This document shows, in pieces, positions 416 through 19,541 of a stretch of 30,147 bases of DNA (positions within the stretch are counted from its first letter, which is position 1; the number at the start of each line of letters is the position of its first letter). Where the stretch lies: the IMG/VR virus record IMGVR_UViG_3300045988_114868, positions 1 through 30,147 of that record; one strand, given 5' to 3'. The translations under genes and the position numbers were made by a program. The notes beneath the pieces are model-generated. The model saw only the letters and a list, made by a program, of their open reading frames with translations, made no database searches and was not told the DNA's origin. This DNA comes from a virus.

Positions 416-416
416 A

Positions 417-1447: not shown

Positions 1448-1455
1448 CAAAGACA

Positions 1456-1485: not shown

Positions 1486-1519
1486 TCATATCCGGAACAC
1501 GATGAAGGAGCGAAGAAAA

Positions 1520-1560
1520 CGACACGCCGATATACCCCCAACCTTCATAAATGATATAGT
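1520..1560 (+). promoter_or_regulatory. Inverted box CGACACGCC, 26 nt, then extended -10 TGaTATAGT
   Basis: Read directly. Same box-to--10 spacing as at 385-425. Confidence 0.5.
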
Positions 1561-1587
1561 AAGAATATCAACCAAGAAAGGAAGACA

Positions 1588-3387: not shown

Positions 3388-3394
3388 GAACACC

Positions 3395-3721
3395 ATGGCA
3401 ACAAAACCATTCACCGTCACCATCGAAGGCAAGGAAATCACAGTACGCCAGAACGCCTACACAGGACTCTTCTACGCCATCCGGAATGACGGCAGGCATA
3501 CTCCGGTCAACTACCGTCTTGTTAAAGCGCAGACTTCCAGCATGCAGCGGCTTAAATATTGGAGGAACCGTTACGGGTACACGCAGTCAGACCTCGCCGA
3601 AAGACTTCACGTGTCCAGTAAAACCATCATCGAGATGTGGGAAAACGGGTTAAGGCACCCGCTCAAGAAATACAGGCAGTTGATCAATGCCGAACTCAGC
3701 TCGGACATATTCCCCGACTGA
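3395..3721 (+). CDS. 108-aa protein with C-terminal XRE/Cro-type helix-turn-helix
   Basis: LKYWRNRYGYTQSDLAERLHVSSKTIIEMWENGLRHP fits the HTH_XRE pattern. Confidence 0.7.
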   Translation: MATKPFTVTIEGKEITVRQNAYTGLFYAIRNDGRHTPVNYRLVKAQTSSMQRLKYWRNRYGYTQSDLAERLHVSSKTIIEMWENGLRHPLKKYRQLINAELSSDIFPD

Positions 3722-3734
3722 TTCTCCCATCAAT

Positions 3735-3760
3735 GGCGTGTCGCATCAACGTGACACGCC
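3735..3760 (+). promoter_or_regulatory. Second copy of the 26-nt hairpin (GGCGTGTCGCATCAACGTGACACGCC), a perfect 8-bp palindromic pair of boxes
   Basis: Differs from 385-410 at one base. No T-tract follows, so it looks more like an operator than a terminator. Confidence 0.55.
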
Positions 3761-3765
3761 ATATA

Positions 3766-3774
3766 TGATATGAT
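3766..3774 (+). promoter_or_regulatory. Extended -10 promoter TGaTATGAT
   Basis: Same architecture and downstream ATATCAAGCA as at 417-440. Confidence 0.55.
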
Positions 3775-3822
3775 AAATATATCAAGCAGGGAACCCACCA
3801 CAACACAAAAAAGGAACCAAAA

Positions 3823-4092
3823 ATGGAAACCGTCAAATACCTCACCACCATCATCAGCCTCATCATGCAACAGCCGAAAATCGGCACCATCCTCGACGAG
3901 GACGGACTCGACCCGGAAATCACCTACGGACGAATCGGCATCAAAGACTACACCGCGTTCATCAACCTCTACGGCCTATTGAACGGCATCGAAAAAGTCG
4001 AAACCACACCAGTCCACGAAATCGACAACGGCATCGGATATGACTTCACCATGACAACCCCGATCACACTACACTTTTTCCATTGGAAGTAG
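3823..4092 (+). CDS. 89-aa hypothetical protein
   Basis: Canonical initiation context aaaaaggaaccaaaaATG, own promoter 3766-3774, terminator 4107-4152. Confidence 0.65.
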   Translation: METVKYLTTIISLIMQQPKIGTILDEDGLDPEITYGRIGIKDYTAFINLYGLLNGIEKVETTPVHEIDNGIGYDFTMTTPITLHFFHWK

Positions 4093-4106
4093 CCTCCAAA
4101 ACATAC

Positions 4107-4152
4107 AAAAACGCCCCACATCCAGCCAAACAAGCCGGACGCGGGGCGTTTT
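4107..4152. terminator. Bidirectional hairpin between convergent genes 3823-4092 (+) and 4168-4467 (-)
   Basis: AAAACGCCCC ... GGGGCGTTTT outer stem. Confidence 0.65.
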
Positions 4153-4167
4153 ACACACCAGGATCAA

Positions 4168-4467
4168 TCAGCGGCTCACACCGGCATAATGCACGCCGAA
4201 CAAACCAGCCACGCCAGAACCAACCAGCGCACAAGCGCCACCGACGACGGCAACCCACGACGGAACACCCGGAACGGCACTCACCAAACTGGCCACCGCA
4301 CCGGCAATTCCCACCAACCCAGATACCAAATACGCCACACGACGCGTCTCAGCATCAAAAGTCGGCACATAATTATCACTGCCATCCGCGCACTCATTCG
4401 TGATCATGGTTCCCGAAGTCGGATCACCAGACAACGAATCATCAACCAACATCACATGCTTAGCCAT
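4168..4467 (-). CDS. 99-aa membrane protein downstream of the endolysin (holin-like or lysis accessory)
   Basis: Two C-terminal hydrophobic segments: AYLVSGLVGIAGAVASLVSAV and WVAVVGGACALVGSGVAGLFGV. ATG 4467 lies 10 nt after GAAAGGA. The track start 4476 is a TTG. Confidence 0.55.
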   Translation of the reverse strand: MAKHVMLVDDSLSGDPTSGTMITNECADGSDNYVPTFDAETRRVAYLVSGLVGIAGAVASLVSAVPGVPSWVAVVGGACALVGSGVAGLFGVHYAGVSR

Positions 4468-4486
4468 AAACAACAAATCCTTTCAA

Positions 4487-5329
4487 TCAGTGAAAAATAA
4501 TACCGTCATTAAGACGCTTCTGGAATTCCTTCACAGCCATGCTCGGAGCAGGACTGATCACACCATCCCCCTCGAACCCATTCATCTCCACAAGGAACCG
4601 ACGAATGAACTCAGGACCCGCATTACGCGGCAGGTCAGTAATGCCGAAACGGTATGACATCCACTCCACCCAATCACTGCCGGAAGTCCCCTCCTCCAAA
4701 CAGGCGATGTTCTGATTCTCGATACACCGAATCTGCCCGGACATGACACCATCGACAGACGTGCCAGCAACCTCCTGAGCCCTACGCATCGTCAAAGGAC
4801 CCCAAGACCCATCAACCTCAAGCTTCGTAACCGACTGCGTCGCAGGCTGCACAGGCACCGGATTCGACGGAGCCACAAACCCCCGAGCCAAACAATCCAA
4901 ACGATCCAGATCATACGAGCCCGGACACTGCGTCGCAGAACAATCACGATGACGAATCAACGGCAAATCACCATACTCCGCCCGAAGATCACGGATAAGC
5001 TCGGCGATCGTCTCATAATCACCATCCGACTGGCGAGGATTGCACTCAATGCCGATACCCATATCATTGCCCTTGGAACCAACACCAACCCCATCCCCGG
5101 CATTCCATGCACGGTCATCAGGGTCCACGATACACGCCACACGGCCAGCCTCAGCCACATAATGCGCGGAAGCACCACGAGACGGATTGCACAAGGTATT
5201 GATGACGCCCTCGAACGTCGGATTCGTATTCGGGTCACCCCACCAATGAATCACAATGAATTTGATACCGTACGGGCGACCACTCGTATAATTCGGACTA
5301 TCAAACTGAGTGATATTTTCATACGACAT
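4487..5329 (-). CDS. Endolysin: N-acetylmuramoyl-L-alanine amidase (Amidase_2/PGRP type) with a C-terminal putative wall-binding region
   Basis: IVIHWWGDP, HYVAEAGRVACIVDPDDRAWNAGDG, GIECNPR and RHRDCSATQCPG (His/His/Cys zinc ligand pattern). ATG 5329 is preceded by AAGGAG. The track N-terminal extension is rejected. Confidence 0.8.
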   Translation of the reverse strand: MSYENITQFDSPNYTSGRPYGIKFIVIHWWGDPNTNPTFEGVINTLCNPSRGASAHYVAEAGRVACIVDPDDRAWNAGDGVGVGSKGNDMGIGIECNPRQSDGDYETIAELIRDLRAEYGDLPLIRHRDCSATQCPGSYDLDRLDCLARGFVAPSNPVPVQPATQSVTKLEVDGSWGPLTMRRAQEVAGTSVDGVMSGQIRCIENQNIACLEEGTSGSDWVEWMSYRFGITDLPRNAGPEFIRRFLVEMNGFEGDGVISPAPSMAVKEFQKRLNDGIIFH

Positions 5330-5342
5330 TTTCTGTCTCCTT

Positions 5343-5534
5343 TCAAACAGTAAACGCATACCAAACAGTATAAAGAAAACGGGCAAAAGCCGGAATCCCG
5401 GTGGCAAGCAGATAACCGCCCACTACCATGACGCCAATAAGAAATGACGACAAAAGAATGAGAACGACGTTCTCGATGAATTCATGGCTCATATCATCCA
5501 GCATACCAAAGCACCCTACGCTAGACTTAATCAT
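5343..5534 (-). CDS. Small two-TM protein upstream of the endolysin (putative holin)
   Basis: VVLILLSSFLIGVMVVGGYLLA plus GIPAFARFLYTVWYAF. Start is uncertain (5534, 5504 or 5492) and none has a clear SD. Confidence 0.5.
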   Translation of the reverse strand: MIKSSVGCFGMLDDMSHEFIENVVLILLSSFLIGVMVVGGYLLATGIPAFARFLYTVWYAFTV

Positions 5535-5879
5535 ATGACCGAACTAATATCATCCATCATCGGACTCGCCGGCATAGCAGTAGGAGGCACCATCACATGG
5601 GTCACCACACGTCGCACCAACCTCACCACCTCCTACCAACATCTCGTAGAAGCACAAGGCGAACTCAAAAAACAAATCGACGCCCAAGACGAAAAAATAG
5701 ACAAACTCATCCGAACACGAGACGCATTACAACACACAAGCGACCTCGAAACCAGCTACATTCGTAAACTAGGCCACTGGCTCTCCGAATTCTGCGAAAT
5801 AGTCGACGATGAATTCCTCTCACGCCACCCGAAACCATCCCTACCAGACGAACTACGAGACCGCATCTGCCCCCTCTAA
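5535..5879 (+). CDS. 114-aa N-terminally membrane-anchored coiled-coil protein, counter-oriented inside the late block
   Basis: MTELISSIIGLAGIAVGGTITWV followed by heptad-like QHLVEAQGELKKQIDAQDEKIDKLIRTRDAL. Alternative start 5484. The antisense track ORFs here look spurious. Confidence 0.6.
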   Translation: MTELISSIIGLAGIAVGGTITWVTTRRTNLTTSYQHLVEAQGELKKQIDAQDEKIDKLIRTRDALQHTSDLETSYIRKLGHWLSEFCEIVDDEFLSRHPKPSLPDELRDRICPL

Positions 5880-5889
5880 CCGACCCCGA

Positions 5890-5931
5890 CATAAAACAAG
5901 CGCCACGATCGAACAAACACGATCGTGGCGC
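5890..5931 (-). terminator. Intrinsic terminator after the tail fibre gene (minus strand); also closes the plus-strand gene 5535-5879
   Basis: Perfect 12-bp stem GCGCCACGATCG/CGATCGTGGCGC. A T-rich tail (TTGTTTTATG) is present only on the minus strand. Confidence 0.7.
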
Positions 5932-5963
5932 ACTCGTCAAAAAACCGAAAACCCGGCAAACCC

Positions 5964-6863
5964 TTAATACCGTCTGGAAATCGGCCAGCTCACACTACCC
6001 CTACGAGAACCAGTCGAACCGTTAGCACCCCTATTAGTGACCTTAATGGTACCGCCAGTATCCACCATCAACAAGCCAGTAGAACTACCACCATTCTCAA
6101 CGCAAAGCGCAGCCGAAACATCCACCGCGGGGCGACACGCCTGCTTCACCTTATCAGTAAAAGGAACCTCAGCCCACGAGCCGTTATCGATCTGAATACC
6201 GGAAACCTGAACAGTACAAGAATCCGCACCATACAAGAGCGTCAAACTACCATTAAGCCAATTAGTGGAAACCACTTCAAGAGTGTCATGCCAGACACCG
6301 TTCTCCCTCACATACCGGGTGCCGGTAGCTGCCACCAACACCTCCTGCCCGTCAGCTACGGTAAGAGCATTCAACCTATCTGTGTTAGCAACTTCCATCA
6401 GCATGTTCCGATGCAACACAGGAAACACGTCAGAAATAACACCAGCAGTAACATAGGCAAGCACCAAACCGGGAATCGCACTATCGGCAGCTGACTCCGG
6501 ATACACTTTCACCAAGCCACGAGGCACACTCCCCTGTGAATGATTCGGATCCTCCACAATGACCGCGATCTTATAATTGCCAGACGGACCGGGAAGCGTC
6601 ACGGTCTCATCGCTCATAATGGCATAAGTGTAAGCCCCGACACTAGCCCACGGGCTCAATATCCCACAATGAGGTCGGACAGTGACCTTCAACCCGTCGA
6701 TCACACACAACGGGCTCGAAGCCCCATACAACACGCCGGAAACGCAGTTAAAAGCCGTACCATCAGACGGAGCCAGAAACGGGTTAACGACATGCCGAAA
6801 ATTGTCAGCCGTGTAAGACGGAGACCCACCAACAGCAGTCAACGGATGCATGATAATACTCAT
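5964..6863 (-). CDS. 299-aa tail fibre / receptor-binding candidate (structural, function by position)
   Basis: Last gene of the tail module. SD GGAGAG lies 6 nt upstream and minus-strand terminator 5890-5931 follows. Confidence 0.5.
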   Translation of the reverse strand: MSIIMHPLTAVGGSPSYTADNFRHVVNPFLAPSDGTAFNCVSGVLYGASSPLCVIDGLKVTVRPHCGILSPWASVGAYTYAIMSDETVTLPGPSGNYKIAVIVEDPNHSQGSVPRGLVKVYPESAADSAIPGLVLAYVTAGVISDVFPVLHRNMLMEVANTDRLNALTVADGQEVLVAATGTRYVRENGVWHDTLEVVSTNWLNGSLTLLYGADSCTVQVSGIQIDNGSWAEVPFTDKVKQACRPAVDVSAALCVENGGSSTGLLMVDTGGTIKVTNRGANGSTGSRRGSVSWPISRRY

Positions 6864-6866
6864 CAG

Positions 6867-7559
6867 CTACTCTCCAACAGTAGATTTCTTAATATAATTC
6901 TCCTCTATGTTAGCAATCTTTGCAGAAAGACTCTCGACCGTGCCCTTCAACCCATCCACCTCACTCATGCTCTCCTGCGCCAACCGTAAAGCAGCCATAC
7001 TCAACTTCGCATAGTCAACACCGACAGGAACACCATCATCATCATATTCGCAAAAGAAACCAAGACCGGCATCATCCAAATCCTCAGCAAGGAGGCCGAC
7101 AACCGGCTGCGCGTCATCAAGTTTCAAATTCAAATCATCCCTGAACCAATACACGCGCCATTTCACCCGACGGAGAGCATCCAACGGAATGAACCCGTCA
7201 GCATCAGCAACATTCGTCACCGAACACGCCGACGAACAATCACCGCCCAACGTGCCATCATAAAGACAATAAACCGGCTTCCGAGAAGCCGACGAAATCA
7301 TAGCATCAAACACGTTCTGAACACCGGTGCCACCATGAGCTGGCACCACTATCGCACCAGGCCTGCCAACATCGCTCTGACTCACGTCAGTGGCCAACGA
7401 CTCGAAATCACCCTCGACGGCGGCAACACGCCCTCCCAACCGGTTGATGCTCTTACCGATGCTAGCCGTCAACTCCCGCAACTGACGGCGGACCTCCGAA
7501 AACTGGCGTGCGGTAGCATCCACCCCATCAAGCGAAAACCTGAACTTACCTTGCATCAT
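6867..7559 (-). CDS. Tail fibre protein with C-terminal intramolecular-chaperone (Peptidase_S74-like) domain
   Basis: GGTG fibre motif (VPAHGGTGVQN). C-terminal VVGLLAEDLDDAGLGFFCEYDDDGVPVGVDYAKLSMAALRLAQESMSEVDGLKGTVESL matches the S74 chaperone pattern. AGGAGG SD; the second ATG (7556) is equally possible. Confidence 0.65.
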   Translation of the reverse strand: MMQGKFRFSLDGVDATARQFSEVRRQLRELTASIGKSINRLGGRVAAVEGDFESLATDVSQSDVGRPGAIVVPAHGGTGVQNVFDAMISSASRKPVYCLYDGTLGGDCSSACSVTNVADADGFIPLDALRRVKWRVYWFRDDLNLKLDDAQPVVGLLAEDLDDAGLGFFCEYDDDGVPVGVDYAKLSMAALRLAQESMSEVDGLKGTVESLSAKIANIEENYIKKSTVGE

Positions 7560-7565
7560 ATCCTC

Positions 7566-8675
7566 CTACTGCAATACCGGCGTAACAGTCCAAGAACCAC
7601 TGAAATCAATATCATATCCAACGACACGCGCCTCACCATGGTTGAACCCCTCCAAACGTCCACTATCATCAGTGATATCCCACGAGACGACATCACCCGG
7701 ACTCCAATCCCTATAAACAACAGGCGCAGACATCAGATCCAACGTCATGTCGACAGTATTCGTACCATCCTGTAATTGCCGTAACGCGGACATAGCGTGA
7801 GCATCCAACGTGTCCTTCCGTGTAATGCTCTCCGACGCTCGGACCACATATTCAATGACAGGACGGTAAGACTGTCGCACGGTCATCACATCAGAACGCA
7901 ACTGATCCTCACCCGACGTCGACCCCACCGCCACGACCATGTTCGCACCATAACCAGTCGTATAATCCTCCAAAACCTTGAAAGACGTCATCGCACTCTC
8001 ATCAAACGTCGTAACCGGAGTAACGGAACCTATCCTATCTGCAACCGTCAAAACCGGCCGATATCTGCCACCATCGACAGCCAGCCATGACGTGCACCAT
8101 TCCGGACCATTCTGAACGTTCGAAAGGTCCTGAAGGGCACTCAGCAACGTTTTCTCGGAGGACTCTTCATACGTCCTGTCGCGTAGTATTCTACTGGAAG
8201 TCACGTTCATCAGAAGCGTGAACCGATGATCCGTGAGCGTACTCGATACAAGATCCTTCACGATCTCACACTGGTCACGTTTCGAATACGAGTGATCCTT
8301 CACATACACGTGATCAAAATAATGTTCGACGGTCGCCAACGTAAGAGACAGTCCCGAGCCTTGCAGACTACGTTCCCGTTTGACGACGATACCACCCCAT
8401 AATACGGTCAGTTCGCTCACCAAAACGATGGCCGTGCCATACGGGATCGTCGCCTCATTCCAATTAGACGGAATGTTCCGCCACGGAATCATCACCGTCT
8501 CACTCGTCTTTTCCTCGAAACGATACGAAAACTTGGAAACCTGTAAGTCCGGAAACTCTGCCAACACGGTTCCATCGGTCAAAGATACCGAAAGGAATTG
8601 AAACCCGGTCGTAGACCACGATGCGCCACCATCCACGGAACTAGACGAACCAAACCAGTTATCAGCCCAAACCAT
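7566..8675 (-). CDS. Tail-associated lysin-like / baseplate hub protein (Tal N-terminal domain type), 369 aa
   Basis: Position directly after Dit, size typical of a Tal structural domain, SD AAGGAG. Confidence 0.6.
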   Translation of the reverse strand: MVWADNWFGSSSSVDGGASWSTTGFQFLSVSLTDGTVLAEFPDLQVSKFSYRFEEKTSETVMIPWRNIPSNWNEATIPYGTAIVLVSELTVLWGGIVVKRERSLQGSGLSLTLATVEHYFDHVYVKDHSYSKRDQCEIVKDLVSSTLTDHRFTLLMNVTSSRILRDRTYEESSEKTLLSALQDLSNVQNGPEWCTSWLAVDGGRYRPVLTVADRIGSVTPVTTFDESAMTSFKVLEDYTTGYGANMVVAVGSTSGEDQLRSDVMTVRQSYRPVIEYVVRASESITRKDTLDAHAMSALRQLQDGTNTVDMTLDLMSAPVVYRDWSPGDVVSWDITDDSGRLEGFNHGEARVVGYDIDFSGSWTVTPVLQ

Positions 8676-8685
8676 GACATGCTCC

Positions 8686-9576
8686 TTACATGTAAGCCGG
8701 ATAGAAAGAAACCGTCATACGAGCGTCACTCGAATATTCACTCGAACTGAAAGCCCACTCGTTAGACCCAGCAGCAGCCTGACTCCATTCACGTCTGACG
8801 ACATTGCCACGAGCCGGGTCGGACCCGTCAACCAATATCTCATGGTTCATGCCGTTTATCGTCACATAATGGCCGATGCCGAGCCTCATGTCGAAAGCCA
8901 TGACATGCCCGCTCTCGACATGCGATACCTGCGGGTTCACGACAGGGCCATCAATACGAATAAACACCGGACTAGGAGCGTTACCAACGTTCGATAGTAA
9001 GACACGGCCGGATAAGACATCCTCGGACCACATCCAAGCTGATACCGAACCGCTGCACGTCCCGAAACAATAGGGGAGCGTCATACCACCGGACGTGCTC
9101 GGCAACCCCGAAACACCGGACACTAATTCAAGCCCATACATGCACGGATCCAAAGACGTCAAACCGATACTGAAACGAAGCATGTTCACTCCAGCCCATT
9201 TGACCAATGGTGCGGATGCCGACTGCCACACTTGCATTTGAAATCCGACATCCCCAAGCCTTGCGGACAGTCTCATACCGGCAGTGTCCAGAACGCTTTT
9301 AAACGCGGCCCACGCCTTTACGCATGATTCAGTCCACCGGCCGATAATATGACCTTCGATGGTAATGGTGCGACCTTTTAAACGGGGCAGATTACCATAC
9401 CAGCCGTCAGTCATAAGCTTTTCACTGGTTTGCAAAGTCGAACCCACACCGTCGAACAAGCCGGACACGTCCTGGAACGTGACATGCCATTCGCAACCAT
9501 ACGAGTCCACACCGTAGAGTGGAAAATCGTTCAACGTCAACTGAAGGTCACGGGAATCGGGAAAAAACATGCTCAT
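8686..9576 (-). CDS. Distal tail protein (Dit), 296 aa
   Basis: Immediately downstream of the tape measure, as in siphovirus tail-tip modules. Size and position are the only evidence. Confidence 0.6.
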   Translation of the reverse strand: MSMFFPDSRDLQLTLNDFPLYGVDSYGCEWHVTFQDVSGLFDGVGSTLQTSEKLMTDGWYGNLPRLKGRTITIEGHIIGRWTESCVKAWAAFKSVLDTAGMRLSARLGDVGFQMQVWQSASAPLVKWAGVNMLRFSIGLTSLDPCMYGLELVSGVSGLPSTSGGMTLPYCFGTCSGSVSAWMWSEDVLSGRVLLSNVGNAPSPVFIRIDGPVVNPQVSHVESGHVMAFDMRLGIGHYVTINGMNHEILVDGSDPARGNVVRREWSQAAAGSNEWAFSSSEYSSDARMTVSFYPAYM

Positions 9577-9594
9577 AATCCCATCATATCCTTA

Positions 9595-11643
9595 TCACAC
9601 GTAGCAGAAATTGATCATTCGAACTGTTTCACGTGCCGCCATCGTCGGATCGGAAGCATTGACGGTGATCGGAGCGGACACGCGAGGGCCACTATTCTCA
9701 TTCAAAGCCACCGGAGAAGACATTGGAGTCGAGAGAGAGCCTGACAGGGAGACGGGGAGCAGATCCGATACCATGTCCTGTACCGGTCGCACGGCCAAAC
9801 TCTCGTTCATTTCCACACCAACGCCCAAGCCAGCGGGGATCATCTTACCAACCTCGTCACGGAACACTCGTGATGGCGAATGAATGCCAAGAGCGCCCTT
9901 CGCTGCGTTAACTATGCTGGAAGCCGCTCCCTTGACCGCTGCGACGGCATTGCCTATAGCACTCTTGATACCGTTGATCAAACCTTGAATGATGTTATTA
10001 CCAGCGGAAACAAGCCATGATCCGGCCCCGCTGAACGCGCTTTTGATTTTACCTCCGATACCATTGACTGTGTTCAAGACCGCGGTGACACCGTTACGTA
10101 CGGCACTGGTGATACCATTCCAAGCGTTGGAAACGAAACTCTTGACGGAATTCCAAGCATTGGACCAAGTGTTCGAGATCACGCCCATTACCGACGAGAC
10201 GACGCCGGAAACGGCGTTCAACGCGGCCGTCACGTTGGCTTTGATACCATTCCAGACCGTCGAGACAAGATTGCCTATGGCATCCCAGACAGAGTTCCAG
10301 TCGCCTTGCACGCCAGCCAATACGACGGAGATGATGGCGTTGATGACGTTCATCACAGTGGAAACGATCGTCTGAATGTGTGGAAAGACCGCGTTGATAA
10401 CACCTTGGATCGCGTTGGCCCACACGGTGAATTGAGCTTGCAAGGCCGGTAGGACAGCGTTGAATACTGCAGCCATGTTATTGATAACCGGGGTGATAGT
10501 GCTTATGATGGTCGCACCGAGCTGGGTGAGGTTCGCGACCAGTGAACCCAATACCGGCATGAACGTTTGGAAAGCCGCGTTCAGGATCGGCATGATCGCA
10601 CTGCCAAGATTCTGTAAAGCCTGCATGAACGGTTTCAAAGCCGGTAATAGTTGACTGGTGAACACTTGCCCGACCGGAGCGAAAGAAGACTGGACCACGC
10701 TACCAACCTGCTGCAAGGCTGGCATCATCGACGACGTCATGCTTTTGAAAGCCTGAGGCAGACTGCCGATACCCTCGGCAAGCATGCTGATCCCTTGAGT
10801 GGCGGGCCCTTTGAACGAATCCAATATTTGCATGCCGACGTTCACGACGGAAGCTTCCAGATTACCCATCGCACCTTCGATGGTTTGCGTGCTGGTAGCG
10901 GCTTCCTTGGCCGCATCGGTCATACCCAGGTCCATGACGGCCTTGTTGAATTCCTCGGCGGTGATCTCACCTTTGGCCATCGCGTCACGGAAGTCACCGG
11001 TGTAGGCACCGTTTTTCTTCATGGCTTCCTGTAGTTTGCCTGAAGCGCCCGGGATCGCATCGCTTAACTGGTTCCAGTTTTCAGTGGTGAGTTTACCTGC
11101 GCCTGCTGTTTGGGTCAATACCATGCCAACGCTTTTGAACGTGTCTGCGTTACCGCCTGCGACCGCGTTGAGGTTACCGGCTGCTTCTGCTAGGTTCGCG
11201 TAATTGTTGACGCCGTTCGCAGCTAATTGTGCGGTGGTGTTGCGAATGTCGGACAGGTTGTACACGGTTTCGTCCGCGTATTTCTGCGTACTGGCGGTAA
11301 GTTGGTCTATCGTGCTTGTGTCTAGGCCTGCGAAAGACAGTGTGCTGGCGAATTTTTGTGCGGAATCGGAGGCTTCGATGATGTCATCGCTGAGGTTGCC
11401 TATGGCGTCTACGGCCATGCTGATTCCGGTGGACACGAGACCGCCGACGGCTCCTGCGATGGCTGAAAACTTGCCTAGTCCGCTAGATGATTTGTTAGAG
11501 GCTTTGTCCATGTCGTCCATGGAGTCGGAAGCTTGGCGTGCGGATGTTTCGATTTGGTGGCTGCCGGTTTGGATGGTTTTGACGCCGTTTTCCCAGTCGC
11601 TGGTGTTGATTTCGGCGTCGAGTGTGAGTGTGGAGTCAGCCAT
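9595..11643 (-). CDS. Tail tape measure protein, 682 aa
   Basis: Ala/Gly/Ser/Asn-rich with periodic Trp/Asn repeats (VWNGIKANV, TWSNAWNSVKSFVSNAWNGITSAV). GIHSPSRVFRDEVGKMIP motif is typical of TP901-family tape measures. Confidence 0.85.
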   Translation of the reverse strand: MADSTLTLDAEINTSDWENGVKTIQTGSHQIETSARQASDSMDDMDKASNKSSSGLGKFSAIAGAVGGLVSTGISMAVDAIGNLSDDIIEASDSAQKFASTLSFAGLDTSTIDQLTASTQKYADETVYNLSDIRNTTAQLAANGVNNYANLAEAAGNLNAVAGGNADTFKSVGMVLTQTAGAGKLTTENWNQLSDAIPGASGKLQEAMKKNGAYTGDFRDAMAKGEITAEEFNKAVMDLGMTDAAKEAATSTQTIEGAMGNLEASVVNVGMQILDSFKGPATQGISMLAEGIGSLPQAFKSMTSSMMPALQQVGSVVQSSFAPVGQVFTSQLLPALKPFMQALQNLGSAIMPILNAAFQTFMPVLGSLVANLTQLGATIISTITPVINNMAAVFNAVLPALQAQFTVWANAIQGVINAVFPHIQTIVSTVMNVINAIISVVLAGVQGDWNSVWDAIGNLVSTVWNGIKANVTAALNAVSGVVSSVMGVISNTWSNAWNSVKSFVSNAWNGITSAVRNGVTAVLNTVNGIGGKIKSAFSGAGSWLVSAGNNIIQGLINGIKSAIGNAVAAVKGAASSIVNAAKGALGIHSPSRVFRDEVGKMIPAGLGVGVEMNESLAVRPVQDMVSDLLPVSLSGSLSTPMSSPVALNENSGPRVSAPITVNASDPTMAARETVRMINFCYV

Positions 11644-11973
11644 TTATCGTTCCTTTCCGAGTTCGTTTATGATGCGGCTGATTTTTTGGTCTCCGTGTTT
11701 GGTGAATGCGGCTGTTAGGCATTCGAAGGTTAGTCGGTATTGTTCGGCTAGTTGGATTTGGTGTTGGTGGCGGCCTTCTTTGATTAGGGCGAGCATCAGG
11801 TTTGGTGTCAGTTTGTTTTCCAATGCGTCGTGGATGGCCTCCCACCCGTATAGGTTGCCGAGTTCGGCGAGGATGCGGATGCTGGGGGAAGCGGGTTGTT
11901 TTGTTTCCTGTTGTTTGTATGTTTGCATCCGCTGTTTTTCGGCGGGGGTGAGGAGGCTATCCCATGAGCGCAT
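11644..11973 (-). CDS. Second tail assembly chaperone ORF (T-like), 109 aa
   Basis: Sits between the G-like ORF and the tape measure. Same reading frame as 11980..12330, separated by TGA plus two codons. Confidence 0.6.
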   Translation of the reverse strand: MRSWDSLLTPAEKQRMQTYKQQETKQPASPSIRILAELGNLYGWEAIHDALENKLTPNLMLALIKEGRHQHQIQLAEQYRLTFECLTAAFTKHGDQKISRIINELGKER

Positions 11974-11979
11974 TTGTTG

Positions 11980-12330
11980 TCAGCCTTTGATGTCGAGGGT
12001 GAGGTTTTCGGCCATAAGTTTGCAGAGGGCGGTCATCGCTTGATAGTAGGCGAGGTCGCTGCGTTGTTTGGTTTGTGTCATCCATTCGTGGAAGGTGTTG
12101 TTTGGGGTCATGAGGTCGGCGACGAGTGGGAAGATGATGTTTTCTGCGGTGTCGAGTGTTTTTTTGGTCATTTCGCCGGTGGAGAGTTTGTCGAGTGCGT
12201 CGGCGTTGTCAAGGATGGTGAGCATGTCTTTTGAGCCGAGTGGGCGCATGGTGTAGGTGGTGCCGTCGAGTTTGATGGTGAGTTGGCGGAAGGATTTGCG
12301 GGTGTCTATGGTTAGGGTTGGTGTGGTCAT
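11980..12330 (-). CDS. Tail assembly chaperone (G-like), 116 aa
   Basis: Position between the major tail protein and the tape measure; acidic small protein. Confidence 0.65.
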   Translation of the reverse strand: MTTPTLTIDTRKSFRQLTIKLDGTTYTMRPLGSKDMLTILDNADALDKLSTGEMTKKTLDTAENIIFPLVADLMTPNNTFHEWMTQTKQRSDLAYYQAMTALCKLMAENLTLDIKG

Positions 12331-12392
12331 TTGTGTTCCTTTAGCGTGGTATTATTGGTGTTGGCTCTTTTATGCCATTGTGTTGACGGATT

Positions 12393-12435
12393 AGCCCATC
12401 ATCGTATTGTAACGGTGGTGGGCTTTTTCTGTTTT
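12393..12435 (+). terminator. Hairpin plus T-tract oriented for the plus strand, inside the minus-strand late operon
   Basis: AGCCCAUCAUCG/CGGUGGUGGGCU gives 12 bp with two G-U pairs on the plus strand (C-A mismatches on the minus strand), followed by TTTTCTGTTTT. Confidence 0.55.
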
Positions 12436-12437
12436 GA

Positions 12438-13310
12438 TTACTTCTGTTTGGGGGTTAGGTCTGCGGCCTGTTCGGCGGTGGGGACGGTACCCTGTGCGTT
12501 GATGCGGACGGTGGCTTGTGCGCTACCGGATTTGAAGGCGATGGAGCTGATGCCGGCTTTCTTGGCGGTGAGGGTCCAAGTGCCGTCACCGTTGTTGACT
12601 ACGGTGGAAACTCCGGCTTCTGGGTTTTCTACGGTGATGGTGCCGGTGGCTCCGTTCGGTAGGGCGGTCACGGTGATTTTCACTGGTTCGTTCACTTTGC
12701 AGGTGACGTTGGATGGGGTGGCGGTGAGACTGGTGATGGCGTTTTCCGACGGTTTGATGGTTCCGGTGGTTTCGTCGTAGTAGCTTGGCGTGTCGAGGTT
12801 GAGTTCGCCCATGACGACTGCGCCTTCGGGGCTGGCGGTCATGGTGCCGGTGAGAGTGACGACGAATGGGTCGCTGAGGCTGATTTTGAATTCACCTCCG
12901 GCGCTGATGAGGGCTTGCGGGATGCGGAAGTCCTGTGCGCTGGACTGGCCGTCGCACACGTTGTGGATGATGATGTCTCGCGGCGTGTTGGAGACGCATT
13001 CGTTGCCGCCGAATCGTACCTGACCGGTTTCGCCGAGGTCTCCGCCGATGACGCGTTTGAATTTTGCGTTGTGGTAGAGTTCGGGGAACAGCATGCCGAG
13101 GAAACGGACGCTGGGGCAGATGACGTTGAGTTCGAAGCTCATTTCATCGTAACTGCCGTTCGGTACTTTGATGGTGCCGGACTGGCTGGCGATTTCGGTG
13201 GTGCTTGGAGTGAGGGTAAGCGTTCCTACTTCATCCTGAACATAGTCGGGTGGGATGACCATGTCGTCGATGTAGACGGTTTTCTTGCCGATGAGTGGAT
13301 AGGATGCCAT
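12438..13310 (-). CDS. Major tail protein with C-terminal Ig-like (Big_2) domain
   Basis: C-terminal ITSLTATPSNVTCKVNEPVKITVTALPNGATGTITVENPEAGVSTVVNNGDGTWTLTAKKAGISSIAFKSG fits Big_2. Position follows the neck genes. Confidence 0.8.
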   Translation of the reverse strand: MASYPLIGKKTVYIDDMVIPPDYVQDEVGTLTLTPSTTEIASQSGTIKVPNGSYDEMSFELNVICPSVRFLGMLFPELYHNAKFKRVIGGDLGETGQVRFGGNECVSNTPRDIIIHNVCDGQSSAQDFRIPQALISAGGEFKISLSDPFVVTLTGTMTASPEGAVVMGELNLDTPSYYDETTGTIKPSENAITSLTATPSNVTCKVNEPVKITVTALPNGATGTITVENPEAGVSTVVNNGDGTWTLTAKKAGISSIAFKSGSAQATVRINAQGTVPTAEQAADLTPKQK

Positions 13311-13368
13311 TTTTTTCCTTTCGGTTGAAGCGTCCGGTTTGACTGTGGTGTATTATGCCGTTTTCATT

Positions 13369-13794
13369 TTACAGTGTTGCCGAATCGAGTTTGTAGTCGA
13401 TTTGAAAGCGGATGCTTTTCACCCAGTGTCCTTCGTGGTCGATGGCGTCCAAGTCGATTGCGGTGGCTGGATGAGTGCGGATGCTTTCGTAGGTGATGTC
13501 AGTGATTGGCTGGCAGGTGAGCCGGCAGTAGTGGTGGAATGTGTTGTTGATGAGGTTGAGGAGTCTGAGCATGAGTCGGCCTTGTGTAAGGACGTCTTCG
13601 TGGCGGCTACTGATGGTGATCTGGTCCGTGTAGAGGTCGCCGTTGATGTCGACCGTGTTCGCGTTGACCCAGATGCCTTCCGTGCTGGTGACCGTACCGG
13701 TGTCGAGGATTGGGCTGGTACCGAAGAAGAGGTTTTGGCCGTAAATGCCGTAGCCTTCGTTTTGGAGGGCCATGCATACTGCTAGGTCTATCAT
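13369..13794 (-). CDS. Tail terminator / tail completion protein (SPP1 gp17-like position)
   Basis: Synteny only: directly upstream of the major tail protein gene. Confidence 0.55.
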   Translation of the reverse strand: MIDLAVCMALQNEGYGIYGQNLFFGTSPILDTGTVTSTEGIWVNANTVDINGDLYTDQITISSRHEDVLTQGRLMLRLLNLINNTFHHYCRLTCQPITDITYESIRTHPATAIDLDAIDHEGHWVKSIRFQIDYKLDSATL

Positions 13795-13803
13795 GTGTCG
13801 TCC

Positions 13804-14124
13804 TTAGAGGTTGAAGTAGGTTTTAGTGCGTGAGCTTGCGGTGCGGGCGGCTCGTTCCAGATAGCGGACGGTGTTTGGATGCAACCGGTTTTCGTGTTCG
13901 CGAATGCGTGCGTATGGGACTCTGCCGTTACCGAAGGTGATTTGCCAGTGGTTGTTTCCGACTTGTTGGAAGCGGCCGCTGTTGCGTAGTGCGCCGGTTT
14001 TGACTGGCGCGTTTTGGCGGGCCATGCGGAGGATGTCGGTCATCATGCGCACGCCGCCTTTGTTGAGTTGTTGGGTGGAGAGTTTGCGTGCCCATTCGGC
14101 GGTGACTTTGAGCTGGTAGCTCAT
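13804..14124 (-). CDS. HK97 gp10-family neck/tail component
   Basis: ARQNAPVKTGALRNS motif and size (106 aa). ATGA overlap with the upstream gene. Confidence 0.65.
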   Translation of the reverse strand: MSYQLKVTAEWARKLSTQQLNKGGVRMMTDILRMARQNAPVKTGALRNSGRFQQVGNNHWQITFGNGRVPYARIREHENRLHPNTVRYLERAARTASSRTKTYFNL

Positions 14125-14492
14125 AGGCTGGTCCGTCCGTAAGGGTTGCCGGTGAGGGTGATGAACATGGTTTTGCCGATATCCATGTCGTCTCCTCTGC
14201 TGGCTTTGATGACTTGGTAGGCCTGCCCGTTATGGAGTTTGAGGATGAGGTCGGGCCATGCTTCCATGTCTTCGCGGAGTGTTTCGGGAAGATTGTCTGG
14301 TCGGATGTGAAAGCGGCGAGTGGAGATCCGGCTGCCGTATTCGGCTGGCTGGTCGGTTTCAGTGGAGTGTTTGATGATTGTTTTAATGTCGGCGAGTTTA
14401 ATGTTGTCGAGGCCGGGGGCCGTGTATTTCCAGAGCGAGGCTGTTTGCACTTGTGCAGGGAATAGGGTGAACGGGTTACATTGCGGTGCCAT
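14121..14492 (-). CDS. Head closure / head-tail joining protein (SPP1 gp16-like), 123 aa
   Basis: Internal ATG 14492 (MAPQCNPF...) is preceded by GAGGAGG. The longer track ORF start 14642 would overlap the upstream gene by 167 nt. Confidence 0.6.
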   Translation of the reverse strand: MAPQCNPFTLFPAQVQTASLWKYTAPGLDNIKLADIKTIIKHSTETDQPAEYGSRISTRRFHIRPDNLPETLREDMEAWPDLILKLHNGQAYQVIKASRGDDMDIGKTMFITLTGNPYGRTSL

Positions 14493-15138
14493 ATGAGTAG
14501 TCGCCTCCTCGATAGTCTTGCTCGTTTGCCCACCAGGGCAGATCGTAGTGAGTGGTCGGCATGCTAAGGAGTCCCCCGTCGTCTGTGGTGGTTGGGCAGA
14601 GTTTCCACGTGGCCAGCAGCGCCTTGTATGGGGTGATGGCATGTTCTAGTGTGGCCTGTGTCCTGGTGGCGTAGGAGACGCTCACGTCTTCGATTTTCTT
14701 CGAAGTGATGTCGTCCGTCCGGTCGCTTATTGACTGGTCTGCTTGGATGATGGCCGTGAGAATGCCGGCCAGTGGTTTCGGTAGTTTTGCGAAACCGTGG
14801 ATGCCGGTGATCGTGAGGGCCATGCCGGGTAGGTACGGTGTGGCAAGCGTTAATGTCTTGGCGTATTTGGCTTCTGGGGTCAATGCATCTGACTGGGAGT
14901 ATTCGATGGTGTATTCAAGGCTGTTGCCGTACGTGGATTTCACGTCGGTAACTGCCGAATACCATGATGGGAGGATGACGTGTTTTCCGTCATCGCTAAC
15001 GAATCCGGTCAGGTCGGTGGTCGACTGTGATAGTTGGCTCATGCAGAGCATGCTGGCGAGGTCGGCCAATGCTGCGTCTTTCCACGTGTCGTATACGGTT
15101 TCACCGACTTGGGTAATGATGGTGTCGTCTATTATCAT
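14476..15138 (-). CDS. Head-tail adaptor/connector protein, 220 aa (by position)
   Basis: First gene after the capsid-module hairpin 15160-15191; synteny only. Confidence 0.5.
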   Translation of the reverse strand: MIIDDTIITQVGETVYDTWKDAALADLASMLCMSQLSQSTTDLTGFVSDDGKHVILPSWYSAVTDVKSTYGNSLEYTIEYSQSDALTPEAKYAKTLTLATPYLPGMALTITGIHGFAKLPKPLAGILTAIIQADQSISDRTDDITSKKIEDVSVSYATRTQATLEHAITPYKALLATWKLCPTTTDDGGLLSMPTTHYDLPWWANEQDYRGGDYSYGTAM

Positions 15139-15159
15139 TTTTCCTCCGGGGAAATGAAT

Positions 15160-15191
15160 AGGTCCTACCGTAAATTGTAACGGTAGGACCT
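15160..15191. terminator. Perfect 11-bp hairpin after the capsid/collagen-like genes
   Basis: AGGTCCTACCG-N10-CGGTAGGACCT in the 73-nt gap between 15138 and 15212. Confidence 0.55.
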
Positions 15192-15211
15192 AATTGTTTG
15201 TTGGCTGGCTG

Positions 15212-15484
15212 TCAGGCTGATGCTTCCATCAGTCCTGCGTTGATCAGGGCGTTTACTACCTGTTCTACCGTGCCAGTGGTCGGGTCAACGTGAGAGGCTT
15301 TGGTGATCGGGCCAGCGGGGCCAGCCGGGCCAGCGGGACCAGCCGGGCCAGCGGGACCCTGAGCGCCCTGACCGAAGGCCACTGGCTGACCTTCCTCGTC
15401 CACGAAGTTGATGACCTTGACTGTGCCCCTATTGTCTTCCGGCAGTGCCTTGCTGCCGATTCGCGAGTACATTTCAACGTTCAT
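15212..15484 (-). CDS. 90-aa protein with collagen-like Gly-X-Y run; candidate head decoration or fibre
   Basis: GAQGPAGPAGPAGPAGPAGPI (7 G-X-Y triplets) is encoded by a 9-bp tandem repeat. Lies 2 nt downstream of the capsid gene stop. Confidence 0.6.
   Translation of the reverse strand: MNVEMYSRIGSKALPEDNRGTVKVINFVDEEGQPVAFGQGAQGPAGPAGPAGPAGPAGPITKASHVDPTTGTVEQVVNALINAGLMEASA
15309..15359. repeat. 9-bp tandem repeat (GGGCCAGCG/GGGCCAGCC, 5.5 units) encoding (GPA)n on the minus strand
   Basis: Read directly in 15301-15360. Confidence 0.9.
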
Positions 15485-15486
15485 TA

Positions 15487-17298
15487 TCAGGCCTTCGGTT
15501 TGATGACGACAGCGGACTTCTCAGCATCCAAGCCACCGCCAGCGTAGATCTCCTGCAGATATTCGTTGGTGTTAGTCTGGAGTGCAAAATTCGTAAACGA
15601 TTCGACGGAAGTGTCGCCGACGAACGCGTAGTGGGAAGCGGCCATGACCACGCCGGACGTCTTCTTGTCGTCGTCCTCGGTCCACCATTCCGGGGTAATG
15701 ATCTGGGATACGCCAAGAGCGCGGGCGAGGGTGTCGTCACCGCCAAGGGCGATGAAGCTGTTACCGTTCGCGTCGGCGGACATGAGCAGGTCGGCTACCG
15801 TGTCCGCATTGCAGACGAGGACCTTGTTGCCCTGGGCTCGAACCATGTGGGAAGCCTTCACGAAGCCCATGAGCGGCGCGTCTTCGGTGAGGGTGTAGGT
15901 GAGGGCGAACTTGTTACCGGCCCATCCGGAGGACCTGTCGGCCGCGTCGGTAGCGACGGAACGGAAGTGGGCCATGTCCTCGTACCCACCGAGCACGACC
16001 TGACGTTCGATGGTCTGAACGATATAGTTCGGCAATTCGGACAGGATGTAGCGGAGCAGTGCGCCCGGCTTCTGCGTGCGACGGATATCGCCCTTGTTCA
16101 GGGTGATGTACTTGTACGTGTAGTCGGCGGTCAGCTCACGCTTGACAAAGGACGGGGTCTGGTCCTTCTTCTTGGTGCCGTAGAAGTCGACGGGATAGCC
16201 GTGTGCACGGGTGTCTTCGGTGAGTCCGAGGATATTGCCGCCGATGGTGAGCCTGTCCATGCCGGTCTTGCGGAATAGGTTCCACAGTCCGGATCCGCGC
16301 GTGTTGAGCGCGTCGCTGATGGTGGTGATGGCTTCGGTCGGGATGAACTTGTCCACGTCGGTCTTGCCTACGCCAAAGGAGGCGGTGTCGGCCATGTTGT
16401 GGGCCACGGTGTCGGCCCATTCCTTATGGAATGCTTCAACGCCCTTATTGTCATTGTCGATGAGGGTGCGTTCGAAGGCGGCCATGGCGTCCGGAGAGTC
16501 TAGCCACGTCTTACGGTCGTGACCGAAGGAAACGATTCCGGACTGTCTGGCCGTATGATTGCTCTTGTTGACAATGACGAGCGGACGCTTGTTTGCGGAC
16601 TGGACCGGTTCTTCCGGAGAGCGGGTCTGCTGTGAGTCGTCCTGCGTAGCGTCGGTCTGAACGTTGACGGCTTCGGTGATATCGTCAACCGCGTCGGACA
16701 TGATGTCGGTGATGGAAGAGGTCAGGGTGGAAGCCTCGTCCGGGGAGAGCTTAAACTCTGCGACGGTACGTGCCAGCTTCTTCATGAGTTCCGGGTCCAT
16801 GTTATCTCCATTTCTTTTGTTGATTGCTGTGAAGGCTGCTCGCTGGTCGGCTCCACGGTAGACCACGCTGATTTCCACCAGTTCGCTGTCGTGGATGATG
16901 CCGTCCTTGCCGGGCCTTTGAGAAAATTCGACGGTGATACTGAAACTGTTGGTCAGGCATCCGTCTGCGGCGAGTTGGCGAACCCGTTCGCCGTTGTCGA
17001 CTTCGCTGAGCTTTGCCTCGGCCATGAGTCCGGCATCGGCCAGCCATAGGCGAGTGATGACGCCTGCCTGGGAGTTGATGCTTGGCTCGTGGTCGATTAG
17101 GAGCGGCAGCGTTAGTCGGTCGGATTCCGTGAGCTCTTCCACGAGTTTCAAACTGCCGTCGACGAGCGGCGCTTTGAGTGTGGTGAGATCCACGGTGAGA
17201 CCGTCGCACATTGGCTTGCCACTGTTGGCGAGGAATGTGAGGGTGCGGCCTTTTGTTTCAACAGCACCGCTGTGTGTGAGACTCTTGCGAATCTTCAA
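15487..17298 (-). CDS. Prohead protease - scaffold-like linker - HK97-fold major capsid fusion protein, 603 aa
   Basis: N-terminal HK97-type protease motifs: LLIDHEPS, LTNSFSITVEF, ELVEISVVYRGADQRAAF. An acidic linker follows, then a ~370-aa capsid-sized C-terminus. TTG start 17298 lies 6 nt after GAAAGGA. Confidence 0.75.
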   Translation of the reverse strand: MKIRKSLTHSGAVETKGRTLTFLANSGKPMCDGLTVDLTTLKAPLVDGSLKLVEELTESDRLTLPLLIDHEPSINSQAGVITRLWLADAGLMAEAKLSEVDNGERVRQLAADGCLTNSFSITVEFSQRPGKDGIIHDSELVEISVVYRGADQRAAFTAINKRNGDNMDPELMKKLARTVAEFKLSPDEASTLTSSITDIMSDAVDDITEAVNVQTDATQDDSQQTRSPEEPVQSANKRPLVIVNKSNHTARQSGIVSFGHDRKTWLDSPDAMAAFERTLIDNDNKGVEAFHKEWADTVAHNMADTASFGVGKTDVDKFIPTEAITTISDALNTRGSGLWNLFRKTGMDRLTIGGNILGLTEDTRAHGYPVDFYGTKKKDQTPSFVKRELTADYTYKYITLNKGDIRRTQKPGALLRYILSELPNYIVQTIERQVVLGGYEDMAHFRSVATDAADRSSGWAGNKFALTYTLTEDAPLMGFVKASHMVRAQGNKVLVCNADTVADLLMSADANGNSFIALGGDDTLARALGVSQIITPEWWTEDDDKKTSGVVMAASHYAFVGDTSVESFTNFALQTNTNEYLQEIYAGGGLDAEKSAVVIKPKA

Positions 17299-17324
17299 GT
17301 CGTATCCTTTCGGATTGGGTGGTG

Positions 17325-17366
17325 GTGCTCGTCAGGTGCGCCGGTGGTCGGCGTCTTGACGAGCAC
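17325..17366. other. Long hairpin in the portal-capsid intergenic gap
   Basis: GTGCTCGTCA ... TGACGAGCAC (10 bp) plus an inner CGCCG/CGGCG stem. A plus-strand TATGATAT box follows at 17367-17374. Confidence 0.5.
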
Positions 17367-17395
17367 TATGATATCACGGGGCCATATGCGGTTTG

Positions 17396-19486: not shown

Positions 19487-19541
19487 TTTATCCTCGATCT
19501 ACTGGTTAGATTGCGTATTTTTCAGTATATTACTTGTGGGG

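Follow-up and report, generated by a model that had tools for sequence, protein, structure and literature searches.

The window analysed here, the whole 30,147-nt stretch of the IMG/VR virus record IMGVR_UViG_3300045988_114868, is the genome of a small gut siphophage whose strand composition reverses inside a single gene, that of the tape-measure protein (TMP). On the plus strand, A and C prevail along one part of the circular genome and G and T along the other, and the reversal in the TMP gene falls within one minus-strand operon. Windowed and cumulative skews confirmed this change of sign, which the initial annotation had proposed. The bias is strand-based, mutational and present throughout a clade of relatives, and its two switch zones lie opposite each other on the circle. 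We read the flip as one of two boundaries of a replication-linked, strand-specific mutational bias that divides the circle into two replichores, in which replication would start in a compositionally neutral zone and the forks would meet half-way round, in or near the TMP gene; we give this reading a probability of roughly 0.45. That the forks start at an iteron array within the neutral zone is the part that we infer.

Strand composition around the circular genome

An exact 55-nt direct repeat joins the two ends of the window (1-55 = 30093-30147). This is an assembly overlap of k-mer size, and the genome is therefore circular, with 30,092 bp and with genes crossing the junction. Genes were mapped by PHROG and Pfam scans. 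We distinguish arc A (11.5 to 23.75 kb), arc B (26.86 kb via the junction to ~8.6 kb) and the two zones between them, using G+T on the plus strand at four-fold degenerate sites (four-fold G+T). The segments, and two features needed to judge the role of gene orientation, one of them an open reading frame (ORF), are as follows.

26857-30147, unstranded: arc B, first part; plus strand A/C-rich, four-fold G+T 0.17-0.34; early plus-strand genes
1-8600, unstranded: arc B, continued; plus strand A/C-rich across plus-strand early genes (1-4092), minus-strand genes (4168-8675) and the plus-strand ORF 5484-5879
8600-11500, unstranded: transition ramp, the putative fork-meeting zone; four-fold G+T 0.26 to 0.88, with the GC minimum (10323) and the TA minimum (10784) inside
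11500-23750, unstranded: arc A; plus strand G/T-rich, four-fold G+T 0.70-0.95; minus-strand genes from the tail chaperones to TerL, SSB, Ant and the PASTA-domain gene
23750-26856, unstranded: neutral zone; flat G+T of ~0.45-0.55 with sharp edges; a small helix-turn-helix (HTH) gene, a plus-strand operon (70-aa ORF, dUTPase, DUF1064) and a 1.8-kb non-coding region
5484-5879, plus strand: conserved ORF amid minus-strand genes (PHROG 1397)
4108-4152, unstranded: strong bidirectional terminator hairpin of 20 bp, at which the early (plus) and lysis (minus) units converge

In 1-kb windows over all sites, GC skew was −0.17 to −0.31 and A-T skew +0.14 to +0.48 at 0-9 kb and 27-30 kb, while the interval 11-23.5 kb gave +0.07 to +0.37 and −0.12 to −0.48, respectively. 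The cumulative GC skew reached its minimum at 10323 and its maximum at 26635, and the cumulative T-A skew at 10784 and 23868. Between the GC-skew extremes lie arcs of 16.3 and 13.8 kb, which bears out the replichore-like lengths first estimated. Base counts differed strongly between the arcs (chi-square; G vs. C, p = 4e-154; T vs. A, p = 8e-287), and the cumulative keto excursion of 3621 was nine times the largest in 500 shuffles (≤387). The circular replicon thus carries two skew sign changes far above chance, as expected of replichores. The 60-nt line counts and the two gene starts (terL and Tal) quoted in the initial annotation were correct, except that line 5581-5640 holds 26 C, not 28.

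Composition depended on the arc and not on the direction of the genes. Throughout arc B, four-fold G+T on the plus strand was 0.10-0.30, in the plus-strand genes, in the minus-strand genes 4168-9576 and in the plus-strand ORF 5484-5879 alike. The plus-strand composition at four-fold sites was:

Arc B, plus-strand genes: A.31, C.48, G.14, T.08
Arc B, minus-strand genes 4168-9576: A.39, C.36, G.19, T.06
Arc A, minus-strand genes 11644-23586: A.08, C.14, G.55, T.22

Genes 4168-9576 therefore have a G/T-rich sense strand, the opposite of all other genes, and the first and last genes of one operon make opposite synonymous codon choices, as had been claimed from gene starts, with opposite four-fold preferences and a plus-strand composition that is constant within each arc. 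The key control is the plus-strand ORF 5484-5879, whose sense strand is A/C-rich (four-fold G+T 0.10) like the plus strand around it. Intergenic DNA shows the same division (G+T 0.34 in arc B vs. 0.67 in arc A), and the effect on synonymous and intergenic sites, irrespective of gene orientation, holds in all 18 genomes described below. Composition did not change across the terminator hairpin, and the flip lies 6 kb from this convergent terminator at 4.1 kb. The bias thus follows the DNA strand, not gene orientation or codon choice, although it is strongest at third codon positions. The strand rule and the unchanged composition at 4108-4152 together exclude a simple transcription rule; transcription-coupled asymmetry would follow gene orientation and change at unit boundaries, but the sign is reversed in genes 4168-9576 and stays the same at the convergent terminator.

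Because T is rare on the A/C-rich strand, few stop codons occur there, and long spurious ORFs lie opposite real genes (e.g. 689-1324 on the minus strand, and 13339-13785 and 11204-12043 on the plus strand). A naive longest-ORF gene caller would mis-assign strands in this genome.

Scans of IMG/VR with TMP, portal and initiator yielded dozens of related contigs of 28-31 kb. Seventeen complete syntenic relatives were rebuilt, most with k-mer-sized terminal overlaps, and with the window they form the set of 18 genomes. The flip lay inside the TMP gene in all of the ~35 close relatives (TMP 74-93% identical), although four-fold sites differ between relatives by 0.17-0.42. Comparison of these sequences thus indicates that the bias is actively maintained rather than recently imported.

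We then polarised four-fold substitutions in the 18 genomes by nearest neighbour and outgroup. On the plus strand of arc A, C>T exceeded G>A threefold (0.095 vs. 0.032), A>G exceeded T>C 2.4-fold (0.19 vs. 0.079), and G>T exceeded C>A (0.045 vs. 0.019). The asymmetry was mirrored in arc B, in both plus- and minus-strand genes, and parsimony under skewed composition would tend to understate it. The closest pair, the window and L315 (93% identical over 15.3-23.8 kb), gave a similar picture: at four-fold sites of arc A we counted 25 G>T against 0 C>A, and C>T exceeded G>A (per-site rates of 0.069 and 0.044). With all codon positions included, the rate of G>T per G was eightfold that of C>A per C. 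Because a change from G to T or back leaves keto content unchanged, this asymmetry cannot be a fixation bias for G+T. Mutation itself differs between the strands, with the G/T-rich strand behaving as a damaged strand that undergoes deamination- and oxidation-type changes. Pfam scans of the unknown early ORFs revealed no deaminase or polymerase as a potential mutator.

The two switch zones

The switch on the TMP side involves two minus-strand genes:

9595-11643, minus strand: tape-measure protein gene (682 aa), which contains most of the ramp
8686-9576, minus strand: Dit gene

The flip had been placed at 10.3 kb. The GC minimum does fall there, at 10323, but the change is a ramp of 3-4 kb (~8.6-11.5 kb) and not a sharp point. 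Four-fold G+T is 0.26 at 8.6 kb, passes through 0.33-0.39 to a near-neutral plateau of ~0.4-0.5 (9.5-10.9 kb) and rises from 0.57 to 0.88 over 11.1-11.55 kb. With the TMP start codon set to zero, the ramp summed over the 18 complete genomes covers −3000 to +1250 nt.

We found nothing in the TMP gene that would mark this place. No copies of origin-type repeats were present, and the repeats inside the gene have spacings that are multiples of 3 nt and are therefore read as protein repeats. Analysis of synonymous-site conservation detected no conserved element (minimum variation 0.26; the mean of 0.41 was the highest of six genes), and the gene holds no AT-rich tract. The TMP gene thus has no cis-element or signal of its own, and we read the flip within it as a by-product of replication.

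At the other switch, the features that matter lie in and beside the neutral zone:

24292-24702, plus strand: dUTPase gene
24699-25040, plus strand: DUF1064 gene
25538-25617, plus strand: palindromic iterons CTCAAAATGAG, three copies starting at 25538, 25559 and 25604
25618-25700, unstranded: AT-rich tract, a putative unwinding element, directly after the iterons; lowest 80-nt GC 0.24; overlaps copies of a second repeat, TAGMTAGATAT
26857-27600, plus strand: replication initiator gene (HTH_36 + Phg_2220_C; PHROG 428)
27573-28520, plus strand: DnaC/IstB-like helicase loader gene (PHROG and Pfam scans)

This second switch had been described as a point at 26.65 kb and is instead a flat neutral zone of ~3.1 kb with sharp edges (~23.75-26.86 kb). 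Arc-A composition stops at ~23.75 kb, the start of the leftward operon, where a promoter-like site is found (23826-23798). Arc-B composition begins within ~100 nt of the initiator start codon (four-fold G+T 0.12 in the first 150 nt of the gene). Between these edges, G+T is 0.45-0.53 in the small HTH, dUTPase and DUF1064 genes and 0.52 in non-coding DNA. The plus-strand dut and DUF1064 genes, once cited as G-rich like their surroundings, are thus neutral (four-fold G+T 0.45-0.46) and give no evidence for the rule that composition follows strand and not orientation, which stands on the plus-strand ORF and minus-strand genes of arc B.

The iterons and replication genes do sit at this switch, as was first noted: origin-like repeats, initiator and loader were all found there. 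The iterons are spaced by 21-22 nt and lie ~1.2 kb upstream of the initiator gene, near the loader gene, and the adjoining tract is the most AT-rich 80 nt of the non-coding region. Arrays of 4-5 copies of CTCAAAATGAG, with ~22-nt spacing and the AT-rich tract directly after them, occur in 6 of the 17 relatives (24-34% GC in the AT-rich 80-nt window of iteron-bearing genomes); the motif is absent from the rest. The AT-rich tract itself was found in the same non-coding region in 18/18 genomes, 220-850 nt past the DUF1064 stop. Tandem repeats, an AT-rich tract and a nearby initiator gene are the hallmarks of an iteron-type theta origin, and the array, the sole origin-like element that we found, resembles a classical iteron origin.

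Other repeats occupy the same region. An imperfect direct repeat of ~95 nt (78-82% identical; 25387-25481 and 25736-25826) flanks the iteron/AT-rich core, copies of a second repeat family, TAGCTAGATATCG, lie at 25183-25217 and 25629-25666, and a palindrome with a perfect 21-nt stem is present at 24172-24215.

One switch zone thus holds an origin-like element and the other holds its antipode. In the window, the antipode of the iteron/AT-rich element falls at ~10.6 kb, and the point half-way along the long arc from one sharp edge to the other falls at 10.28 kb, next to the cumulative GC-skew minimum of 10323. Averaged over the 18 genomes, the antipode is 1.60 kb inside the TMP gene and the area-fitted flip centre 1.43 kb; the two are no more than ~1.4 kb apart in 18/18 genomes.

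Replication and competing explanations

Under the replication reading, synthesis would start at the iteron array and AT-rich tract (~25.5-25.7 kb), beside the initiator and DnaC-like loader genes, and two forks would run in opposite directions and meet half-way round, in or near the TMP gene. A meeting position that differed from round to round would produce the 3-4 kb ramp. Along each half, one parental strand would be more damaged and would be depleted of A and C by changes of the types C>T, A>G and G<->T. Unconstrained sites of that strand would have drifted in this way to ~80-90% G+T, irrespective of gene orientation. The TMP gene would merely happen to lie at the antipode of the origin.

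The standard rule takes the minimum of the cumulative GC skew as the origin and expects G and T to be enriched on the leading strand (PMC3269016), and the initial annotation had noted that 10.3 kb would then be the origin. Since the TMP gene has no origin-like feature and the ramp centre lies near the iteron antipode, the 10.3-kb switch is better read as a fork-meeting zone and not as an origin, a choice that makes the polarity anomalous. With forks starting from the iterons, G and T are enriched on the lagging strand, which reverses the rule known from bacteria. The exposed strand would then be the leading-strand template, or would belong to some other phage-specific single-stranded intermediate. 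Three proteins encoded by the phage are possible makers of long-lived single-stranded DNA, and a resolvase is also encoded:

854-1447, plus strand: Erf single-strand annealing protein gene
1588-2490, plus strand: YqaJ-type 5'-3' exonuclease gene
21424-21861, minus strand: SSB gene

The replichores of bacterial chromosomes and theta plasmids (Lobry and Grigoriev; PMC3269016) have the same design of two arcs of opposite skew with switches ~180 degrees apart. They likewise show an effect on synonymous and intergenic sites that is independent of gene orientation, co-variation of G and T, and one switch beside an iteron/AT-rich element and an initiator gene. In contrast, the magnitude in the phage is about an order of magnitude larger (four-fold G+T 0.1 vs. 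0.9), its polarity is inverted if the iterons are the origin, and one of its switches is a flat 3.1-kb zone. In origins of the lambda/SPP1 type, an O- or DnaD-like initiator binds iterons and an AT-rich region and a P- or DnaC-like loader delivers the host helicase, and there theta replication gives way to concatemer synthesis. The phage resembles them in its iteron spacing of about two helical turns, adjacent AT-rich tract, winged-HTH initiator, DnaC/IstB-like loader and set of Erf, exonuclease, SSB and resolvase. Its putative origin iterons differ in being non-coding and ~1.2 kb upstream of the initiator gene instead of inside it. To our knowledge, lambda and its relatives show no replichore-type skew of such strength.

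In magnitude, the closest parallel is vertebrate mitochondrial DNA, whose H strand is G/T-rich, a property attributed to long single-strandedness during strand-displacement replication. Phage and mitochondrial DNA agree in the size of the four-fold effect, in the A/C-rich sense strand of most genes, in the excess of C>T and A>G on the G/T-rich strand, and in a control region with divergent promoters plus an origin. However, mitochondrial DNA has one polarity and a gradient, whereas the phage has two mirror-image plateaus without a clear gradient, and G<->T transversions are prominent in the phage.

Several observations weigh against the replication reading. With an iteron origin at ~25.6 kb, the leading strand is A/C-rich, not G/T-rich; by the standard rule, forks would leave from ~10.5 kb and come together at 24-27 kb. 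The flat neutrality of 23.75-25.5 and 25.7-26.86 kb, and the sharp edges at the divergent operon starts, are not accounted for by one origin at 25.6 kb. The bias reaches a mitochondrial magnitude although the phage encodes no polymerase and is presumably copied by the host replisome, whose skews in bacteria are weak. Across the 18 genomes the flip centre did not track the antipode (r = −0.2, not significant), in a comparison of low power, with antipodes spanning just 1.2 kb and a noisy estimator; the flip centre also shifts by ~1.5 kb between subclades. Finally, strong skew is absent from other, unrelated phages whose initiators belong to the same family. No reading accounts for everything: the polarity, the flat neutral zone and the magnitude remain unexplained.

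The strongest competitor keeps the canonical polarity. Most synthesis would start in the TMP/Dit zone, through recombination-dependent re-initiation or re-initiation triggered by fork collision, with forks travelling outward to end at 23.75-26.86 kb, and the G/T-rich strand would be the ordinary lagging-strand template. The GC-skew minimum (10323) and maximum (26635) then agree with the usual rule (PMC3269016), the C>T, A>G and G>T changes on the G/T-rich strand are the single-stranded damage expected of a lagging template, and Erf, the YqaJ exonuclease, SSB and the resolvase could drive recombination-dependent replication. We nevertheless consider this account unlikely. The TMP/Dit zone is all coding and has no iterons, AT-rich tract or synonymous-site conservation; a ramp of 3-4 kb that moves by ~1.5 kb between subclades is unlike a defined origin; and an obvious iteron origin, with initiator and loader, sits at the other switch. 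Moreover, random meeting of forks in the neutral zone would yield a gradient instead of the flat, sharp-edged profile observed, and ~85% of genes would be head-on to replication.

Another candidate is resection of DNA ends. If the ends of infecting or processed linear DNA flanked a terminally redundant 23.75-26.86 kb segment, a 5'-3' exonuclease could strip the 5'-ended strands inward from either end, leaving the 3'-ended strands (minus in arc B, plus in arc A) repeatedly single-stranded, with effects that cross at the midpoint; both strands of the redundant segment would be exposed equally. Polarity, a sharp-edged neutral zone and a midpoint switch (10.28 kb predicted, 10.32 kb observed) would all follow with no extra assumptions about fork chemistry, and the YqaJ exonuclease, Erf and SSB are encoded. 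The packaging enzyme argues otherwise:

19542-20801, minus strand: TerL gene

The best match of TerL is Sf6 gp2 (E = 8e-43), which we take to be a P22-type headful terminase. With an enzyme of this type, one would expect packaging from a pac site close to terS (~21 kb), giving permuted ends and a redundancy of varying length instead of ends fixed at 23.75 and 26.86 kb. In addition, the skew forms a plateau over 12-14 kb, and the effect of resection should decay with distance. We regard resection as improbable; the attractive notion of a long exact terminal repeat equal to the neutral zone was dropped, being unsupported by an Sf6-like terminase.

We give little credence to transcription as the cause, in the form of two long divergent units with rightward read-through past the 4.1-kb terminator that runs antisense over the lysis and tail-tip genes and fades in the TMP gene. 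Both sharp edges do lie at operon starts (the initiator start codon, and ~23.75 kb with its promoter-like site at 23826-23798), and the conserved plus-strand ORF 5484-5879 shows that some plus-strand transcription occurs in the region. However, the 20-bp bidirectional terminator at 4108-4152 splits the units, composition is constant there, and antisense read-through would have to outweigh the late structural-gene transcripts. The sign is also wrong: transcription-coupled mutation is expected to make the sense strand G/T-rich, and it is A/C-rich in ~85% of genes. The transcription-correlated skew of phages (Szybalski purine loading; T7, T4) shares with this genome a skew sign that matches gene orientation, here in ~85% of the genome, and the position of the neutral-zone edges at operon starts. 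Unlike that skew, the correlation here fails for six minus-strand genes and half of the TMP gene, and the sense strand is C-rich and A-rich, not purine-rich.

A mosaic junction, which the initial annotation had named as an alternative, would mean that a tail-tip/lysis module at 4.2-10.3 kb was imported from a lineage with the opposite codon bias. The tail-tip genes are indeed the most variable (fibre 43-83% identity; gene 5964-6863, 44-86%), as in exchangeable host-range modules. This origin is nonetheless highly improbable: all ~35 relatives flip in the same gene, the change is a ramp and not an abrupt break, the plus-strand ORF inside the module has the opposite sense-strand bias, and the bias has been kept through 17-42% synonymous turnover. 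Outside the clade, homologues of the tail-tip genes in a sister clade and in Bifidobacterium phages are neutral and so offer no pool of biased donors. Translational selection on codon usage differing between gene classes, which the strength of the bias at third codon positions might suggest, can be set aside, because plus- and minus-strand genes of arc B share one plus-strand four-fold composition and hence have opposite codon preferences even within one operon, because intergenic DNA tracks the arcs, and because the ~eight-fold strand difference between G>T and C>A is not something that selection on keto content can produce.

Gene content, relatives and implications

The rightward early operon, on the plus strand, crosses the junction and encodes the initiator, the loader, a nucleotide kinase, Erf, the YqaJ exonuclease and an HTH protein. 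The leftward, minus-strand set comprises an early-type part (small HTH gene, PASTA-domain protein, Ant, SSB), a packaging and head part (a possible TerS, TerL, portal, protease-capsid fusion) and a tail part (major tail protein, chaperones, TMP, Dit, minor tail protein, fibre and an unknown gene). Further features are:

4168-9576, minus strand: lysis/tail-tip block (holin-like ORF, amidase endolysin, unknown gene, tail fibre, minor tail protein, Dit)
4168-4476, minus strand: holin-like ORF
4487-5407, minus strand: amidase endolysin gene
22747-23586, minus strand: PASTA-domain protein gene

The gene map of the window contains no integrase, and Rfam and tRNA scans of the window gave no match. 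The portal protein (17396-19486) is fused to a head-morphogenesis domain like those of Mu F and SPP1 gp7 (PF04860 + PF04233). The capsid protein (15487-17298, 603 aa) has matches to PHROG families of prohead proteases as well as major head proteins and is therefore probably a fusion of protease and capsid.

Among relatives, the replication module varies. Although L315 is 93% identical to the window over 15.3-23.8 kb, its initiator region (26100-28500) cannot be aligned, and the module has been swapped between these near-identical genomes; the skew is unaffected by the swap. Relatives either lack the initiator or carry one of 55-90% identity, and their loaders are of two types (46-49% or 69-92% identity). 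The PASTA-domain gene occurs only in the window, L315 and L316 and is absent from 17 other complete genomes. It already carries the full arc-A bias (four-fold G+T 0.80) and probably moves within the clade's own gene pool. At least eight independent relative assemblies (IMG/VR, ENA NODE_855 and a Logan contig) end 150-220 nt past the capsid-gene stop; this shared end (~15.27-15.33 kb) falls in a 90-aa ORF (15212-15484) with weak matches to collagen repeats, and more probably reflects an assembly interrupted by repeats than a physical end.

The sister clade (portal ~70% identical) has a different replication module, weak skew and neutral tail-tip genes. An apparent gradient in its skew was discarded, as whole-genome profiles showed weak skew plus one local spike. 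In the contig IMGVR_UViG_3300045988_010531, rebuilt from L160 + L299, a block at ~20.8-22.8 kb (in window-like coordinates) encodes a Vut_1/YhhQ-type transporter, a 340-aa ORF without a family match and a ParB-like nuclease, and coincides with a local keto-skew spike of +0.4 in this weakly skewed genome. Another sister-clade genome, L244 (IMGVR_UViG_3300014917_000051), lies inside a 142.6-kb contig, as an integrated copy or a chimeric assembly, and might reveal the host. The nearest named relatives, two phages of Bifidobacterium asteroides (portal identity 50%), have almost no GC skew and a weak AT skew that switches with gene orientation. Whether the query was one portal sequence or a portal alignment, a collection of genomes from 185k species yielded neither relatives nor a prophage copy, and megablast of 25 kb against a phage collection gave no match.

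Replichore-type skew is a known kind of pattern in phage genomes, and a terminus that is independent of sequence would account for a switch inside a gene. The unusual points are how strong the bias is, how completely it is uncoupled from transcription along 6 kb of a single operon, the neutral zone and, throughout the clade, an apparent 180-degree conflict with the standard origin rule. In the searchable literature we came across no account of the clade or of inverted skew in phages.

This conflict matters in practice, as origins and termini of uncultivated phage genomes are routinely assigned from their cumulative GC skew. The rule would place the origin of this clade inside the TMP gene, across the circle from what looks like a textbook iteron origin. 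It is then wrong by 180 degrees for this clade, unless most synthesis starts at a place without a recognisable origin. Bias of this extremity also distorts codon usage, ORF calling and phylogenetic models. With dozens of complete genomes in the clade, the question is directly testable by read depth.

The answer bears on how small phages without a polymerase copy their DNA and on the lifetime of their single-stranded intermediates. One conceivable, though doubtful, picture is of a widespread clade of small, apparently virulent gut siphophages whose replication intermediate keeps the leading-strand template, or a resected or annealed strand, single-stranded for long periods over each half-genome. 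If this is true, long single-strandedness would write an asymmetry of mitochondrial grade into these genomes, with a polarity opposite to the bacterial rule, and skew-based prediction of the origin would be off by 180 degrees for such phages.

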